Origin: a virus
Taxonomy: Duplodnaviria > Heunggongvirae > Uroviricota > Caudoviricetes
Virus record (IMG/VR): IMGVR_UViG_2718217787_000003
Length of the DNA stretch: 12,066 nucleotides
Strand: one strand, 5' to 3'
The position numbers and the translations under genes are program-made. This document shows positions 1-6,922 of this stretch, piece after piece. The notes under the pieces are model-generated. The model did no database searches, was not told the origin of the DNA, and saw nothing but the letters and a program-made list of their open reading frames with translations. The stretch's first letter is position 1, and every line of letters starts with the position of its first letter.

Positions 1-57
1 TGTGTTGTCCTGCATAGCAATGCGCCGTAATACCTTACACCACGGCGCTGATGGTGA

Positions 58-1678: not shown

Positions 1679-3807
1679 AACTGGCACCGAACGTAAAAAA
1701 ACAGCCACGCGGAATAAAACACAAAGACACAGAGGTGATTATTTTCGCGGGTAGTGATGCGTGGGCACATGCAAAACAGTGGCAGGAGCAGGACGGCCCC
1801 GCATCCGGCGATAATGTGCCTCCTGTGTGGCTTGGGGAGCAGCAGTTATCAGAACTGGATAAGCTGCAAATTGTGCCGGAAGGCAGAAAATCCGTGCGCA
1901 TATTCAGGGCCGGACATCTTGCACCAGTAATGATCAAGGCGATTGGTCAAAAGCTGGCGGCGGCTGGTGTACAGGATGCAAATTTTTATCCTGAGGGTAT
2001 GCACGGTCAGAAGGTGGAGAACTGGCGCGAATATCTGGCCCGTGAGCGGCAGAATCTTTCTGATGGTCTGGTTATTGAGTTTCCGGTAAAGAAAAAAGAT
2101 ACCGGAAGCCATAGCGATGACGAATTAAAGCCACGCGTTGAAAGTCGCGCCGATGGTGTTTTCTGGGTAACGCCCAAAGTGGATAAGCAGTCAGGCGAAA
2201 TTATCCGGCCTGAGACGTGGTTATGTTCTCCGCTTGAACTACTGGGAACGGGGACGATCGGTAAAGAGCATTACCGCGTGATGCGCTGGAAAAAAACCGC
2301 AAACCATGAAGTCATCACAATGGCGATCCCGTGTGGTGGTATCGGCGACCGTGACGGCTGGCGGTTACTTAAAGATCACGGGCTGAACGTGACAACCAAC
2401 GGCAAATACAGGGCAATCCTGGCGGACTGGATGCAGTTAAGCGGAAGCCATGAGGAATGGCAGTTAAGCACAACAACGGGCTGGCATTTTGGCGCGTACA
2501 TCATGCCGGACGGTTCGATCATTGGTGAATCTGAAAAACCGATCCTGTTTACCGGAAAAAGCGCCGCGATTAACGGTTATTCCGTGGCGGGCACGGCGGA
2601 TGGCTGGCGCGACAGCGTGGCGCGGCTGGCTGGCGGTAATGCCTCAATGATACTGGGTGTGGCAACGTCACTGGCAGCGCCTTTAATTGGCCTTGTGGGT
2701 GCTGACGGCTTCGGGGTGCATCTTTTCGAACAGTCATCGGCAGGTAAGACCACCACGCAGAACATCGCATCAAGTTTATGGGGAGAGCCGGACGCGCAGC
2801 GGCTGACCTGGTACGGCACGGCGTTAGGTATTGCCAATGAGGCCGAGGCCCATAATGACGGGCTTTTACCACTGGATGAGATAGGCCAGGCCGGAAATGC
2901 GCGGGAAGTGTCAACGTCTGCTTATACGCTGTTTAACGGTTCAGGGAAATTGCAGGGGGCGAAGGATGGCGGCAACAGGGAGATCAAACACTGGCGAACG
3001 GTGGCAATCAGCACCGGAGAAATGGACGTTGAGACATTCCTCAAAAGTGAGGGGATAAAAGTTAAGGCGGGGCAGCTTGTCCGACTGCTTAACGTTCCGA
3101 TGGAAAAAGCCACGAAATTTCACGAATACAGCAACGGTAAGGAACATGCTGACGCGTTAAAGGATGCCTGGACAGCAAATCACGGGGCGGCGGGTCGTGA
3201 GTGGGTTAAATGGCTGGCAGGCCACCAGCAGGAGGCAAAGGACACGGTAAGGGAATGCCGCGAACGGTGGCGCAACCTGATACCGGAGAGTTACGGCGAG
3301 CAGGTCCACCGCGTGGGTGAACGTTTCGCCATACTGGAGGCCGCGCTTGTGCTTTCCGGTCATGTAACTGGCTGGGTCGTGCAGGAATGCCGCGACGCGA
3401 TACAGCATAACTTTAATGCCTGGGTGAAGGAGTTCGGCACGGGTAACAGGGAATTTAAACAGATGGTTGAACAGGCTGAGGCGTTTTTGTCGTCGTTTGG
3501 GTTTAGCCGCTACCTTCCGTACCCCAATACAGATGAGCGTGATTTACCGATTAAAGAGCTTGCCGGATACAGAAAAGGGAGCATTCGCAACGAAGATGAC
3601 GAGATGCGCTATTACACGTTCCCGCACGTGTTTGAGAGTGAGATAGCGAAGGGATTTAATCCGGCGCATTTTGCGCGTGCCCTGGATGCTGCCGGAATGC
3701 TGGAGAAGGGAAGCGATCGCCGATACAAAAAAAAGGCGCTGGGCAAGATTGGGGGTAAGCAGCATGTTTTTTACGTGCTGATGTTCCAGCCTGATGATGA
3801 AGATTAA
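1675..3807 (+). CDS. Replication initiator: primase-associated (DUF927-like) region plus P-loop NTPase (Pri-Rep type of satellites/PICIs), 710 aa
   Basis: A 2.1-kb ORF with SD AGGGG 7 nt upstream of ATG 1675. Walker A motif GVHLFEQSSAGKTT at aa 347-360 (nt about 2713-2754). Its position immediately upstream of an iteron array matches the primase-then-ori layout of P4-like satellites and PICIs. Domain names are from motif recognition, not a search. Confidence 0.85.
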   Translation: MKLAPNVKKQPRGIKHKDTEVIIFAGSDAWAHAKQWQEQDGPASGDNVPPVWLGEQQLSELDKLQIVPEGRKSVRIFRAGHLAPVMIKAIGQKLAAAGVQDANFYPEGMHGQKVENWREYLARERQNLSDGLVIEFPVKKKDTGSHSDDELKPRVESRADGVFWVTPKVDKQSGEIIRPETWLCSPLELLGTGTIGKEHYRVMRWKKTANHEVITMAIPCGGIGDRDGWRLLKDHGLNVTTNGKYRAILADWMQLSGSHEEWQLSTTTGWHFGAYIMPDGSIIGESEKPILFTGKSAAINGYSVAGTADGWRDSVARLAGGNASMILGVATSLAAPLIGLVGADGFGVHLFEQSSAGKTTTQNIASSLWGEPDAQRLTWYGTALGIANEAEAHNDGLLPLDEIGQAGNAREVSTSAYTLFNGSGKLQGAKDGGNREIKHWRTVAISTGEMDVETFLKSEGIKVKAGQLVRLLNVPMEKATKFHEYSNGKEHADALKDAWTANHGAAGREWVKWLAGHQQEAKDTVRECRERWRNLIPESYGEQVHRVGERFAILEAALVLSGHVTGWVVQECRDAIQHNFNAWVKEFGTGNREFKQMVEQAEAFLSSFGFSRYLPYPNTDERDLPIKELAGYRKGSIRNEDDEMRYYTFPHVFESEIAKGFNPAHFARALDAAGMLEKGSDRRYKKKALGKIGGKQHVFYVLMFQPDDED

Positions 3808-3829
3808 TCCCCTGTGTGAGGAAAAAAAT

Positions 3830-4145
3830 TGCGGGTTATGCGGGTTATCCTGTGTATAAGTGTATTAAGTGTATGAATATAAAGGAAATCAATAACCCGC
3901 ACGTAACCCGCAAAAGGGCATTTATAACCCGCAAAAGCACGATTATAACCCGCAGGCGAATAACTGAAGTAACACCGGACAGTCATGCGTAACCCGCAGA
4001 AAAAACCCCGTTTGCGGGTTATTTTGAGCGTTTTGCGGGTTACGTGGTGAGCAAATAATAAACAGGGTGTTTTGCAACATGCTGATATAAAAGGGTAAAA
4101 AATGGTTAGCACGCTAAGATAACCCAATAACCCGCATAACCCGCA
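3830..4145. repeat. Iteron-type origin of replication
   Basis: Seven direct copies of TAACCCGCA (3893-3901, 3904-3912, 3925-3933, 3946-3954, 3990-3998, 4128-4136, 4137-4145) and four inverted copies TGCGGGTTA (3830-3838, 3839-3847, 4013-4021, 4034-4042), with a degenerate copy at 4120-4127. Three GTGTAT-containing repeats with roughly 9-10 bp spacing at 3852-3880. A (TA)n AT-rich tract lies just downstream at 4153-4170. No credible ORF on the + strand here. Confidence 0.8.
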
Positions 4146-4179
4146 CATGTTTCTATATATATATAAATTGAGGTGGCAA

Positions 4180-4431: not shown

Positions 4432-4733
4432 GCGAACCAAAATTTGGTGAAAAACTTTACAAGCACAACGGACGGATCACGATTCAGCAAATAAGCGCAG
4501 CTACACCAGGCTGGTGGGTTGAAACAGACGAAGGATCCTCACCCGTGGCATCATGGGCGCTTTGTGTGCTTAGTTACCCTGACCGCGATGTGTATCAGGA
4601 TATTCTGCCTGTGATATCCACTGACAAAGGCATGAAACCCGTAGACATCAAAAACATGGGTTTTCAGTGCGTAATGCTCACTGAAAAAATGATGGAAGAG
4701 ATGAAAAAGAATAACGCCGGATCGCTTCACTGA
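4428..4733 (+). CDS. Hypothetical protein, 101 aa
   Basis: ATG at 4428 overlaps the upstream stop. No recognisable motif (MSEPKFGEKLYKHNGRITIQQ...). Confidence 0.55.
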   Translation: MSEPKFGEKLYKHNGRITIQQISAATPGWWVETDEGSSPVASWALCVLSYPDRDVYQDILPVISTDKGMKPVDIKNMGFQCVMLTEKMMEEMKKNNAGSLH

Positions 4734-4742
4734 GGTGGCAAT

Positions 4743-5153
4743 ATGACAGCACAAATTGCAGCTTACGGGCGGCTGGTGGACGACCCGCAGGTAAAACAGA
4801 CCAGCAAGGGTACACCGATGACGCTGGCGCGTATGGCGGTATCGCTGCCATGCAGCCAGGCACAGGATGGACAGGCGACGTTATGGCTATCGGTCATCGC
4901 ATTTGGTAAGCAGGCCGACTTCCTGGCTAAACATCAAAAAGGCGACGTTGCCAGCGTATCCGGCACGATGCAGGTCAGCCAGTGGACCGGACAGAACGGG
5001 GAAACGCGGCAGGGTTATCAGGTTATTGCAGACAGCGTAATCAGTGCCCGTGCGGCACGTCCTGGTGGGAGCCGACGCAAGACCACAGGCACACAGGGTA
5101 ATCAGCCACCAGCGGGAGGCGATGACCCTTACGGTGATGATATTCCGTTCTGA
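4743..5153 (+). CDS. ssb: Single-stranded DNA-binding protein, compact, 136 aa
   Basis: SD GAGGTGG (4732-4738) before ATG 4743. OB-fold-like core (...WLSVIAFGKQADFLAKHQKGDVASVSGTMQVSQWTGQNGETRQGYQVIADSV...) followed by a Gly/Pro-rich linker and the canonical SSB acidic C-terminal tip DDIPF (E. coli SSB ends DDDIPF). Confidence 0.85.
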   Translation: MTAQIAAYGRLVDDPQVKQTSKGTPMTLARMAVSLPCSQAQDGQATLWLSVIAFGKQADFLAKHQKGDVASVSGTMQVSQWTGQNGETRQGYQVIADSVISARAARPGGSRRKTTGTQGNQPPAGGDDPYGDDIPF

Positions 5154-5165
5154 GGGGTGGGGACG

Positions 5166-5438
5166 ATGGTACATGACCGCATAGCGGAAGAACTGGAGGC
5201 GAAAGGCTTTTACCGGAGAGCGTCGGCGCGATGGGGTGAAGTCATGCAACTGGTGGAGACAGACAAGGAACGGCATCAGGTTACGATGCGACGGCTGGAA
5301 TGTTCCAGGAAGGCACAGAGGCCACCGGAGCCGCCGGATAATTACGGAGACCTGAAAAAGGCGGTCGATCGCACTTATGCCGAAATGGGTATGGATGGTG
5401 CTGGTGATGAAATATGGCGAAATTACCAGGACAGATAA
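5166..5438 (+). CDS. Possible PerC-family transcriptional regulator, 90 aa
   Basis: ATG at 5166 with SD GAGGGGTGGGGA upstream; the track ORF starts at GTG 5157. N-terminus MVHDRIAEELEAKGFYRRASARWGEVM resembles the PerC/Pch family signature as I remember it; family call is tentative. Followed by a terminator. Confidence 0.55.
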   Translation: MVHDRIAEELEAKGFYRRASARWGEVMQLVETDKERHQVTMRRLECSRKAQRPPEPPDNYGDLKKAVDRTYAEMGMDGAGDEIWRNYQDR

Positions 5439-5444
5439 TCACAC

Positions 5445-5468
5445 AGCCGGAGCAATCCGGCTTTTTGT
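5445..5468 (+). terminator. Rho-independent terminator after the PerC-like gene
   Basis: Stem AGCCGGA (5445-5451), loop GCAA, stem TCCGGCT (5456-5462), then TTTTGT (5463-5468). Confidence 0.6.
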
Positions 5469-5485
5469 CATGTTTTGTAAATTAT

Positions 5486-5635
5486 TTGTTCGTGGTTGTT
5501 CCACGTTGTTCGCTGACCGGATCGGCATATTTTACCCGAACTGAATCATGATTATTCTCGCCCGTGGTGCCAGGACGCTGGGGCCACTTTCCCGCCTGTT
5601 AATGTGCTCGCCAATATTCATTACCAGGCGGGAAA
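5486..5635. promoter_or_regulatory. Leader of the head operon with tandem decamers and an 11-bp inverted repeat
   Basis: Three tandem 10-bp units TTGTTCGTGG / TTGTTCCACG / TTGTTCGCTG (5486-5515), containing the palindrome CGTGG-TTGTT-CCACG (5491-5505). An 11-bp perfect inverted repeat TTTCCCGCCTG (5588-5598) / CAGGCGGGAAA (5625-5635) with a 26-nt spacer. No clear sigma-70 consensus identified. Confidence 0.3.
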
Positions 5636-5725
5636 ACGATCGGTGCGATTGCTGATTTCCTTATGAAAAACGGTTGAGTGTTTGCCGCGTCCTGGAGTTC
5701 CTTACTTAACTTCAGGACTTTTTTT

Positions 5726-6883
5726 ATGCCGAGAATAATCGAATTACGCCAGCAGAAAACCGCCATTAAAAATCAGATGCGCGACATGCTGGAGAACGCG
5801 GAAAAAGAAAACCGCAGCCTTAACGATGCTGAGGGCGCAAAATTTGACGAATTACGCGCTAAAGCTGAATCCCTCGATAAAGACATCTCCCGCCTTGAGG
5901 CCGTTGCTGACGAAGAGCGCAGTAAACCAGGCAAAAACAGCCAGACCACTGACCCCGCCGAACTACGTCACTACATTCTGACAGGTGAAACCCGCGCATT
6001 GAGTACAGGCGTTCCCGCTGATGGTGGTTATACCGTTATCCCCGAACTGAACACCGAAATCATGCGAATGCTGACGGATGAATCCACCATGCGCCGCATC
6101 TGTACCGTGAAGAAAATCAGCAGCAACGAGTTTAAGCAGCTTGTTTCCGCTGGCGGTGCGACCGTTAACCACGGTGAAGAGGGTAAGGCACGCGAACAGA
6201 CCAGCACCCCGCAGATTAACGAGGTGAGCATTAAGCTGTATCCGGTCTATGCGTACCCGCGCACCACGCAGGAAATCGTGGATTTTTCCGATGTGGACAT
6301 CCTTTCATGGCTGACGGGCGAGATTGGCGACACCTTCACGGAAACCGAAGAAAGCGATCTGGTTGTGGGCGACGGTGACAAAAAAGCAAAAGGTTTTTTA
6401 TCCGTACCCCGTGCAGAGAAGAACGACAAAGAGCGTGATTTTGGTACGTTGCAGGTAATTAAACCTTCCGAATCTCTGGCGTGGACATCTGCGGACCCGC
6501 TGATCGACCTGAAATTTGCATTACGTAAAAAATACCGCAAAAACGCGGTTTGGGTGGTTAACTCCACGACGGCGGCAAAACTCCAGAAGGTGAAGAACGC
6601 GAACGGTGATTACATCTGGCGCGACCGTTTACAGGCGGGTGATCCTGATACGTTGCTGGGCCTTCCGGTCGAATATCTGGAGTTTATGCCTGATAACGTT
6701 ATTGCCCTGGGTGACTTCAAACGCGGTTACTACATTGTTGATCACGAAACAGGTGTTCGCACCAGACCGGACAACCTCACAGAGCCGGGCTTTATCAAAA
6801 TTTTCACGCAGAAATATTTAGGCGGTGGCGTGGTGGATTCGAACGCTATAAAGATTCTGGAACTGCCGCAGGACGACGATTAA
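5726..6883 (+). CDS. Major capsid protein, HK97 fold, with N-terminal coiled-coil delta (scaffold-like) domain, 385 aa
   Basis: ATG at 5726 with AGGA 8 nt upstream; the track ORF begins at GTG 5678. The N-terminal 90 aa are coiled-coil-like (IELRQQKTAIKNQMRDMLENAEKENRSLNDAEGAKFDELRAKAESLDKDISRLEAV), followed by a body typical of HK97-family capsid proteins. A prohead protease gene follows directly. Confidence 0.9.
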   Translation: MPRIIELRQQKTAIKNQMRDMLENAEKENRSLNDAEGAKFDELRAKAESLDKDISRLEAVADEERSKPGKNSQTTDPAELRHYILTGETRALSTGVPADGGYTVIPELNTEIMRMLTDESTMRRICTVKKISSNEFKQLVSAGGATVNHGEEGKAREQTSTPQINEVSIKLYPVYAYPRTTQEIVDFSDVDILSWLTGEIGDTFTETEESDLVVGDGDKKAKGFLSVPRAEKNDKERDFGTLQVIKPSESLAWTSADPLIDLKFALRKKYRKNAVWVVNSTTAAKLQKVKNANGDYIWRDRLQAGDPDTLLGLPVEYLEFMPDNVIALGDFKRGYYIVDHETGVRTRPDNLTEPGFIKIFTQKYLGGGVVDSNAIKILELPQDDD

Positions 6884-6892
6884 CAGCACACC

Positions 6893-6922
6893 GAAGGGGC
6901 TAAAAAGCCCCTTCTCTGTTTT
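6893..6922 (+). terminator. Terminator or attenuator hairpin just after the capsid gene
   Basis: Stem GAAGGGGC (6893-6900), loop TAAAAA, stem GCCCCTTC (6907-6914), then TCTGTTTT (6915-6922). Confidence 0.55.

Follow-up and report, generated by a model that had tools for sequence, protein, structure and literature searches.

The gap that precedes the major capsid gene of a phage satellite, an element identified by its gene content as a capsid-forming phage-inducible chromosomal island (cf-PICI) like the prototype EcCIEDL933, probably consists of a promoter followed by a folded leader RNA. On this account capsid output is set largely after transcription has begun, and neither the PerC-family protein encoded just upstream nor the late activators of a helper phage are involved. 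The element lies on a 12,066-nucleotide stretch of viral DNA, IMG/VR record IMGVR_UViG_2718217787_000003, referred to here in its entirety as ‘the window’. An earlier note, made from the letters of this stretch, had singled out the gap as a regulatory region. This view holds, for its repeats and its inverted repeat are conserved among related elements, and we take them to be functional. The anatomy of the gap, its conservation, the base-pair covariation within the leader, and the transcription start in the 97%-identical leader of EcCIEDL933 are established, and from them we infer that the RNA structure regulates expression.

Related capsid loci were gathered from one genome scan, two scans of IMG/VR, and E. 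coli genomes. The IMG/VR loci are a sample, and more than 500 further IMG/VR matches lie outside the set. Upstream sequence was sufficient in 87 loci, and 78 of them have one layout in common ahead of the capsid gene: a 14-bp box and, at three conserved positions, phased hexamers. In 69 of these the leader is long, with its first hairpin (P1, described below) 88-90 nt from the box; in the other nine it is short. From element to element the control region goes along with the capsid module, and not with the replication modules, which vary. The box, ‘BoxA’ (TTTTGTAAATTATT in the window), has the consensus TTTGTAAAT(T/A)(A/T)T across related elements. It is identical or nearly so in elements from E. 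coli, Citrobacter, Erwinia, Rosenbergiella and IMG/VR, its distance to P1 is fixed, and it occurs once per element; a search for a second copy elsewhere in the element found none. In true phage genomes the box and the repeats returned chance-level matches only, the real matches in the database being records that contain cf-PICI-like sequence.

The hexamers, TTGTTC in the window, are spaced by exactly 10 bp and occupy positions -35 to -30, -25 to -20 and -15 to -10 relative to the transcription start. The triple pattern occurs once in the window, where shuffled sequences lead one to expect 0.01. Two classes can be distinguished, a TGTTC type in 34 loci (including the window) and a GTAC/TTTAC/ATTAC type in 44, nine of which are the short-leader loci. 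The three tandem decamers were correctly described in the earlier note, which gave them helical-turn spacing, beginning at 5486, 5496 and 5506, and placed them within the untranslated leader; the transcription start moves them out of it. Among the listed rows of a Cappable-seq study of strain EDL933 (PMC10469882) there is one start for the capsid gene, EDL933_RS08700, at 1687918 on the + strand. This start was called in seven of eight uninduced conditions, a call being made in a condition only when the start was present in all three replicates. With the capsid ATG at 1688124, the 5' untranslated region (UTR) of EDL933 is therefore 206 nt long. The start is the bracketed A of CTGACAGG[A]TCGG, which matches A5521 of the window. 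Coordinates were checked on the alpA starts in the same table, which fall 6-8 nt downstream of ACAAT-type -10 elements. Because the mapped start lies 10 nt downstream of the third decamer, the decamers are elements of the core promoter, and lie outside the leader.

The promoter is not of the familiar kind. The earlier note could find no convincing sigma-70 promoter, nor could we: a scan of positions 4700-6200 gave none at threshold, and at the mapped start the -35 hexamer, TTGTTC, matches the consensus at three of six positions. A consensus promoter there would have hexamers like TTGACA and TATAAT, the second with -11 A and -7 T, separated by 16-18 bp and lying 5-9 nt ahead of +1. The hexamer at -12 to -7, TTCGCT (TTCACT in EDL933), lacks the -11 A, and the promoter is thus non-canonical. 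Operon I of the Staphylococcus aureus pathogenicity islands (SaPIs) is a packaging operon controlled by LexA; between 5440 and 5725 of the window, no LexA box (CTGT-N8-ACAG) occurs at one mismatch or fewer. Inspection by eye alone turned up no sigma-54 element and no site for IHF, CRP, FNR, DnaA, TyrR or a P2-Ogr-type activator in the gap; a Fis-like 15-mer, GTAAATTATTTGTTC, fits loosely, again by eye. Within the transcript there is a second, promoter-like element, TTTACC-N16-TATTCT. In TGTTC-type elements the pattern TTTAC(A/T)-N16-TAT(C/G/T)TT is kept (TTAAAT in two loci), with a spacer that varies in sequence and is constant in length. It might serve as a second promoter, might be a sigma-70 pause element, or might act at the level of RNA. 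We tried it as the operon promoter itself, with the repeats as upstream activator sites, and rejected this arrangement since the EDL933 start puts the element inside the transcript; no start near it is recorded in the rows listed in the EDL933 Cappable-seq table. In the other hexamer class (e.g. L009, positions 3965-3995; handles of this form denote individual loci), a terminator-like hairpin with a T tract separates the third hexamer from the leader. Should the start be equivalent there, it would fall in the loop of this hairpin, in which case transcripts from upstream would be terminated and capsid transcripts would lack the 5' arm.

A protein may bind the box and hexamers, and AlpA is a candidate for it. 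An AlpA-like small helix-turn-helix (HTH) protein is encoded in nearly every element with enough upstream sequence, and in two AlpA-less elements that we examined an HTH_17 protein occupies the equivalent position. AlpA clades, drawn at 70% identity, occur with both hexamer classes. A role for AlpA as the specific reader of the hexamers was rejected on these grounds: its clades do not follow the hexamer classes, and HTH_17 proteins replace it in some elements.

The leader of the window runs from 5521 to the capsid ATG at 5726, ~205 nt. Single leader sequences fold more stably than their shuffled counterparts (z -4.5 to -5.7), and all fold into three hairpins, termed P1, P2 and P3. The earlier note had suggested predicting the structure of the leader RNA, and the result is a multi-hairpin structure with covariation. 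A covariance model, R1, built on the hand-checked structure, matches once per element, 71 times in total and always on the + strand; it has no match in more distant capsid loci or in the PICI with another capsid module. In the alignment made with this model, 87.4% of cells are paired, and the covariation score is 0.356, compared with 0.182 for shuffled alignments (none of 500 reaches the observed value) and at most 0.087 when partners are slid. Applied to a plain MAFFT alignment, RNAalifold recovered P1 alone; the covariance-model alignment was needed for the remainder. The leaders of the window and of L005, L009, L010 and L011 have no match in Rfam 15 at E values up to 1.

P2 has as its base the 11-bp inverted repeat that the earlier note had reported at 5588-5598 and 5625-5635. 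The repeat is longer than was thought, with arms of 17 nt that are 94% complementary, and the hairpin has a folding energy of -23.5 kcal/mol (z -6.3). The basal stem exists in 24 distinct versions, all of them complementary, and nine of its 11 pairs show compensatory change. Several versions contain G-U pairs, which are mismatches on the other strand, and this identifies the + strand RNA as the molecule that pairs. Three further features had escaped notice: the P1 hairpin at 5564-5587, the P3 hairpin at 5689-5718, and the complement between 5550-5560 and 5730-5740. Two tetranucleotides do not vary among the 54 distinct sequences: GACG, the loop of P1, and CGUC, which lies in the 5' arm of P3. 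A hairpin stands at the site equivalent to P3 in other clades also, without the run of T residues that follows it in the window. In the window, the 3' arm of P3 contains the Shine-Dalgarno sequence, AGGA (5714-5717). The third feature, P0, is a helix formed with the first capsid codons, and closes the structure in the minimum-energy fold of 5521-5760 (z -5.2); the topology of L009 is alike. A second candidate closing pairing joins 5522-5529 to 5725-5732 and includes the AUG, and short-leader elements have a 14-bp helix over the AUG. From this predicted structure, the leader would bury the ribosome-binding site and the start codon of the capsid gene.

P1 and P3 can also pair with each other. 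The apex of P1, CCAGGACGC, is complementary to GCGUCCUGG, which overlaps the 5' arm of P3, and the duplex of the two has an energy of -17.1 kcal/mol. When the P1 apex and P3 are aligned as partners, 86.9% of cells are paired, against 22-55% when they are slid, and four pairs change on both sides. The flanks of the invariant tetranucleotides change together: the main clade has AGACGUGA with UCACGUCU, the clade of the window has CCAGGACGC with GCGUCCUGG, and a third clade has GACGGGA with UCCCGUC. P1, P3, and the duplex of the P1 apex with P3 exclude one another, much as the three pairings of an attenuator do. The alternative may act as a switch.

The features of the gap and its flanks can be assembled into a provisional scheme. 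The terminator at 5445-5467 would end transcription of the early genes, and a non-canonical promoter would come next, extending from -48 to -10 and made up of the 14-bp box and the three TTGTTC hexamers along one face of the helix, with A5521 as its start. This promoter would already fire in uninduced cells. The 5' UTR of 205 nt would fold into P0, P1, P2 and P3; P3 would bury the ribosome-binding site and, in the clade of the window, its T7 would give it the form of an intrinsic terminator; and P3 would be opened when its 5' arm paired instead with the apex of P1. Capsid output, in this scheme, is most likely set largely after initiation, by leader-dependent attenuation, by translational masking, or by both, and PerC and the late activators of the helper would play no part.

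Several points weigh against this scheme. The start at 5521 is transferred by homology from an EDL933 leader that is 97% identical, and a -12 to -7 hexamer without the -11 A leaves unexplained how RNA polymerase would open the promoter. The promoter-like element at +11 to +38 is conserved and lacks a place in the model. In nine related elements the box and the hexamers are present and P1-P3 are missing, from which it follows that the leader is dispensable in some elements. The T run after P3 is confined to the clade of the window. In the largest clade, P0 would join a U-rich to an A-rich strand, both of low complexity, and this is weak evidence for a helix. The covariation between P1 and P3, finally, comes down to about two independent clade changes, and the fold that contains their pairing lies 11.6 kcal/mol above the optimum in the window (3-4 kcal/mol above it in L005 and L009).

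Other explanations must be weighed against this one. The earlier note had proposed that the capsid operon probably needs an activator, PerC or a helper late activator. Taken in full, this would mean an operon without a usable promoter, an activator bound to the decamers, and capsids made only upon helper infection. The absence of a consensus sigma-70 promoter and the poor hexamers at the mapped start speak for this, as do the annotation of PerC-family proteins as transcriptional activators and the position of perC immediately upstream. We nevertheless judge it very unlikely. Of the 80 elements that share the control region, 65 are without perC, a PICI whose unrelated capsid module lacks the box has the gene, and the box and repeats do not occur in true phage genomes beyond chance. 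The capsid start, moreover, is active in uninduced EDL933, a strain whose other prophages are reported not to induce the island, and a 2025 preprint reports that tail-less cf-PICI capsids are made without any helper phage (10.1101/2025.02.11.637232). These observations speak against capsid production coupled to the helper and against PerC as the activator. Transcription of the region without an activator, which the earlier note would have counted as a refutation if it were strong and constitutive, is seen as far as initiation goes. An element that acts as DNA (e.g. a replication origin, iterons, or a cos or pac site) is more improbable still, and can be all but set aside. Phased direct repeats do resemble iterons, and inverted repeats do occur in origins and cos sites, but the region follows the capsid module, unlike the varying replication modules, the G-U pairs in the P2 stems point to + strand RNA, and the mapped start lies inside. 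The record of vB_KppS-Ant, a virion-derived relative, begins 22 nt before terS and ends after the HNH gene, which places cos between HNH and terS, and not in the gap, if the ends of the record are physical ends. The leader could, alternatively, be a plain stabilizing 5' UTR that boosts expression of an abundant capsid protein without any switch; it would protect against RNase and, in concert with the hairpin past the capsid stop, would yield a stable capsid message. The stability of the hairpins in the 5' UTR suits this idea, as does the GC hairpin that nearly all elements have past the capsid stop, and the short-leader relatives do without P1-P3. It is an unlikely explanation even so: the GACG loop of P1 and the CGUC of P3 are invariant and their flanks co-vary, burial of the ribosome-binding site and start codon works against simple boosting, and P1 is not a terminal protective hairpin, as it begins 44 nt from the 5' end.

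Processive antitermination of the Q or Pseudomonas AlpA type we consider about as unlikely as simple stabilization. AlpA, bound to the hexamers, would load onto polymerase paused at TATTCT, and the loaded polymerase would then transcribe past two terminators, P3 and the one downstream of the capsid gene. There are parallels with PalpB of Pseudomonas aeruginosa and the lambdoid Q/PR' system (PMC7969949, PMC9371919): a regulatory element in the core promoter, a -10-like sequence early in the transcript, a first gene with an intrinsic terminator directly ahead of it, and a regulator named AlpA in the same element. The window has its hexamers between -35 and -10, TATTCT at +33 to +38 (a putative binding site and a putative pause site, judged from sequence), P3 with its T7, and a terminator at 6893, and alpA is required for induction and transfer of cf-PICIs (preprints 10.1101/2022.09.08.507074 and 10.1101/2025.02.11.637232). 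The proteins differ, however. [quoted passage not shown] By domain match and by length, PICI AlpA has no Q-like, ring-forming antiterminator body. The pause-like element of the window is at +33, whereas that of PalpB is at -1 to +5. The lambdoid PR' pause element falls within about +25, and known sigma-dependent pause elements lie far closer to +1 than that of the window. The terminator form of P3, again in contrast to PalpB and Q/PR', is confined to one clade, and AlpA clades do not track the hexamer classes. With that mismatch, and at a size far below that of Pseudomonas AlpA, the PICI protein is a candidate only.

The combination of a repeat-containing promoter and a folded leader, which we favor, has partial counterparts elsewhere. 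The cII-dependent promoters of lambda, PRE, PI and PaQ, have TTGC-N6-TTGC direct repeats astride a poor -35. The window is similar in having TTGT-N6-TTGT-N6-TTGT from -35 to -12, with a 10-bp period and with a poor -35 and -10. It differs in having three repeats that reach down to -10, plus an upstream box, in firing when uninduced, and in that a second class of relatives has other hexamers. Pfam and PHROG scans of the small proteins of the element revealed no activator of the cII family. The put RNA of phage HK022 (PMC9378689) likewise consists of two adjacent stem-loops near the start of a long, terminator-containing operon, as P1 and P2 are adjacent, 0-3 nt apart; P1 of the window begins at +44, however, compared with +3 for put. 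Model R1 does not recognize put; its best score in the early region of HK022 was 4.6 bits (E 1.8), and the similarity was dismissed. Leaders that act as attenuators or mask start sites include the trp-type attenuators, with 1:2, 2:3 and 3:4 pairings, and the translational operator of mom in phage Mu, bound by Com. Like these, the window has four segments with exclusive pairings and a last hairpin that hides the ribosome-binding site and, in the clade of the window, has a terminator tail. Unlike them, it has no conserved leader peptide and no recognized ligand or protein, a large, insulated P2 separates segments 2 and 3, and there is an additional closing helix with the coding region.

Features of the window at the capsid control region and its flanks; transcript positions are relative to the start transferred from EcCIEDL933, and helices are predicted
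Feature	Position	Strand	Remarks
perC-family gene, accessory	5166-5438	+	Pfam PF06069, E 9.4e-44; RefSeq PerC family regulator
Intrinsic terminator of upstream (early) genes, predicted	5445-5467	+	stem 5445-5462, then TTTTT
BoxA, TTTTGTAAATTATT, almost invariant 14-bp box	5473-5486	+	centered at -41.5 from the mapped start
Three phased decamers	5486-5515	+	TTGTTC at 5486-5491 (R1), 5496-5501 (R2) and 5506-5511 (R3)
Capsid-operon transcription start, A5521	5521	+	by homology to the EcCIEDL933 start, NZ_CP008957.1 1687918
Promoter-like element inside the transcript, TTTACC-N16-TATTCT	5531-5558	+	+11 to +38
P0, 5' strand, GAUUAUUCUCG	5550-5560	+	pairs with capsid codons 2-5 (5730-5740); 11 nt, 100% complementary
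P1 hairpin, GACG loop	5564-5587	+	6 of 10 pairs compensatory; 95.7% of cells paired
P2 hairpin, inverted repeat at its base	5588-5635	+	arms 5588-5604 and 5619-5635
GCGUCCUGG, overlapping the 5' arm of P3	5686-5694	+	complementary to the P1 apex, CCAGGACGC, 5571-5579
P3 hairpin (5689-5718) and T7, abutting the ATG	5689-5725	+	-16.0 kcal/mol, z -5.8
Major capsid gene, HK97-type, opening the packaging operon	5726-6883	+	Pfam PF05065, E 1.7e-61; RefSeq
GC hairpin with T-rich tail after the capsid gene	6893-6921	+	internal terminator or 3' stabilizer

Upstream of the control region, the PerC protein matches PF06069 over its full length (profile positions 1-89 of 90; 148 bits, with a cut-off of 22.6). 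Its assignment to the PerC family in the earlier note is thereby confirmed; the similarity spans the whole protein, and is not limited to the N-terminus as had been described. The gene is carried by 15 of 80 related elements that have the same box, repeats and leader, and it is present, too, in L004, the PICI with a different capsid module and without the control region. PerC and the control region do not co-occur across related elements as cognate partners would, and on both counts, the 15 of 80 and the occurrence in L004, PerC does not appear to be its cognate regulator. Gene content does not support PerC as a partner of the capsid control region, and suggests instead that it is cargo in a variable slot, where other relatives have a ProQ/FinO gene. 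In the E. coli cf-PICI L005, for example, the slot (5196-5726), directly upstream of the capsid leader, houses a gene for a ProQ/FinO-family RNA-binding protein. PerC-type genes belong to the Pch family of virulence regulators of enterohemorrhagic E. coli (EHEC); here the gene would be cargo that stands outside the circuitry of the satellite itself.

After perC comes the clean terminator noted earlier, with its stem and T run where they had been placed; as RNA it folds with -13.2 kcal/mol (z -3.9). It is one of three predicted intrinsic-terminator forms (a GC-rich hairpin followed by a T run) in the region, the others being 5689-5725 and 6893-6921. Relatives of the EDL933 type have an open reading frame (ORF) of 74 aa, phrog_1957, between perC and the control region, flanked by duplicate terminators. 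Alignment of the window with these reveals a deletion of ~350 bp between the duplicated terminators, and recombination of the two copies has left a single, hybrid one. The deletion is visible at 5439-5470 of the window by comparison with 1837-2240 of L002 and 6983-7375 of L182, and several other E. coli elements share it. Of the 84 elements whose sequence extends over 900 bp upstream from the capsid gene, 47 have the ORF. This distribution, and its deletion in the window, led us to reject it as an obligatory regulator. At the other end of the capsid gene, a GC hairpin directly past the stop is present in nearly all related elements, with differing sequences and a T run that is often weak. Under a strict terminator rule, long leaders seemed to go together with a terminator downstream of the capsid gene. 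The association did not survive inspection, since the hairpin is there in nearly all elements, and we dismissed it.

The window matches, at 100% identity, a chromosomal island that adjoins thiM in E. coli O157:H7 strain MB41-1; the element measures ~15 kb in L001. Its first part encodes an integrase, an AlpA-family regulator, an Icd-like protein, a DUF4222 protein, a DUF927 primase, two small ORFs, a single-stranded DNA-binding protein (SSB) and PerC, the AlpA-family gene (Pfam PF05930) being situated just outside the window. PerC is followed by the HK97-type capsid protein, prohead protease, portal, head closure and connector proteins, an HNH protein, a P27-type small terminase subunit (TerS) and the large subunit (TerL). 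Tail and lysis genes are absent from the element according to a Pfam scan and RefSeq annotation. An integrase, alpA, a replication module, a full set of head and packaging genes, no tail or lysis genes, and a length within 10-18 kb characterize cf-PICIs, and all are found here. EcCIEDL933, the prototype, has been described in two preprints (Alqurainy et al., 10.1101/2022.09.08.507074; He et al., 10.1101/2025.02.11.637232). It has the same gene order as the window and a leader that is ~97% identical; it differs in having the 74-aa ORF and in being integrated near phoQ, whereas the element of the window is near thiM.

Some observations concern other parts of these elements. Past the primase gene, at 3807-4147, the window has 340 bp without a convincing + strand ORF, a candidate replication origin. 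A long ORF-like stretch at 2-772 extends over the Icd-like region and belongs to an upstream family that is among the most widely shared, with members in 48 of 50 complete elements; RefSeq shows Icd-like fragments there, plus a YlcI/YnfO gene on the opposite strand. In EDL933, Cappable-seq places a start at NZ_CP008957.1 1692589 (~10191 in the window), inside terS; it is assigned to terL, was called in two of eight conditions, and may mark an internal promoter that serves the terminase genes. The record of Klebsiella phage P12620-1 (L100; PQ569648.1, 97824-106503) contains, in the last ~8 kb of its 106.5 kb, a cf-PICI-like segment with a large ORF of primase size (identified by size), the leader (119.8 bits with R1), and capsid, protease and portal genes. 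The segment may come from a co-packaged satellite that was joined to the phage when the record was assembled.

cf-PICIs are under active study as satellites that make DNA-filled, tail-less capsids of their own without a helper, and that spread across species by means of borrowed tails. How capsid production is controlled we did not find described in the cf-PICI literature cited here: the word ‘promoter’ is absent from both preprints, and word searches in them gave no description of the leader. The region offers a handle on this control in the form of a mapped start, a box-and-repeat promoter, and a leader without an Rfam family whose structure is supported by covariation. One further proposal, doubtful as it stands, is that the leader contains an RNA switch exclusive to capsid-forming satellites, in which GACG of P1 and CGUC of P3 swap partners in response to a factor of the satellite or host. 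If this is true, the switch and the phased-repeat promoter together would represent a control logic undescribed for any phage satellite. Possible triggers include an AlpA-modified polymerase and a feedback signal from the assembly of capsids, and the exchange of partners would gate both termination and translation of the capsid message, and so set the number of tail-less capsids that are made without a helper.

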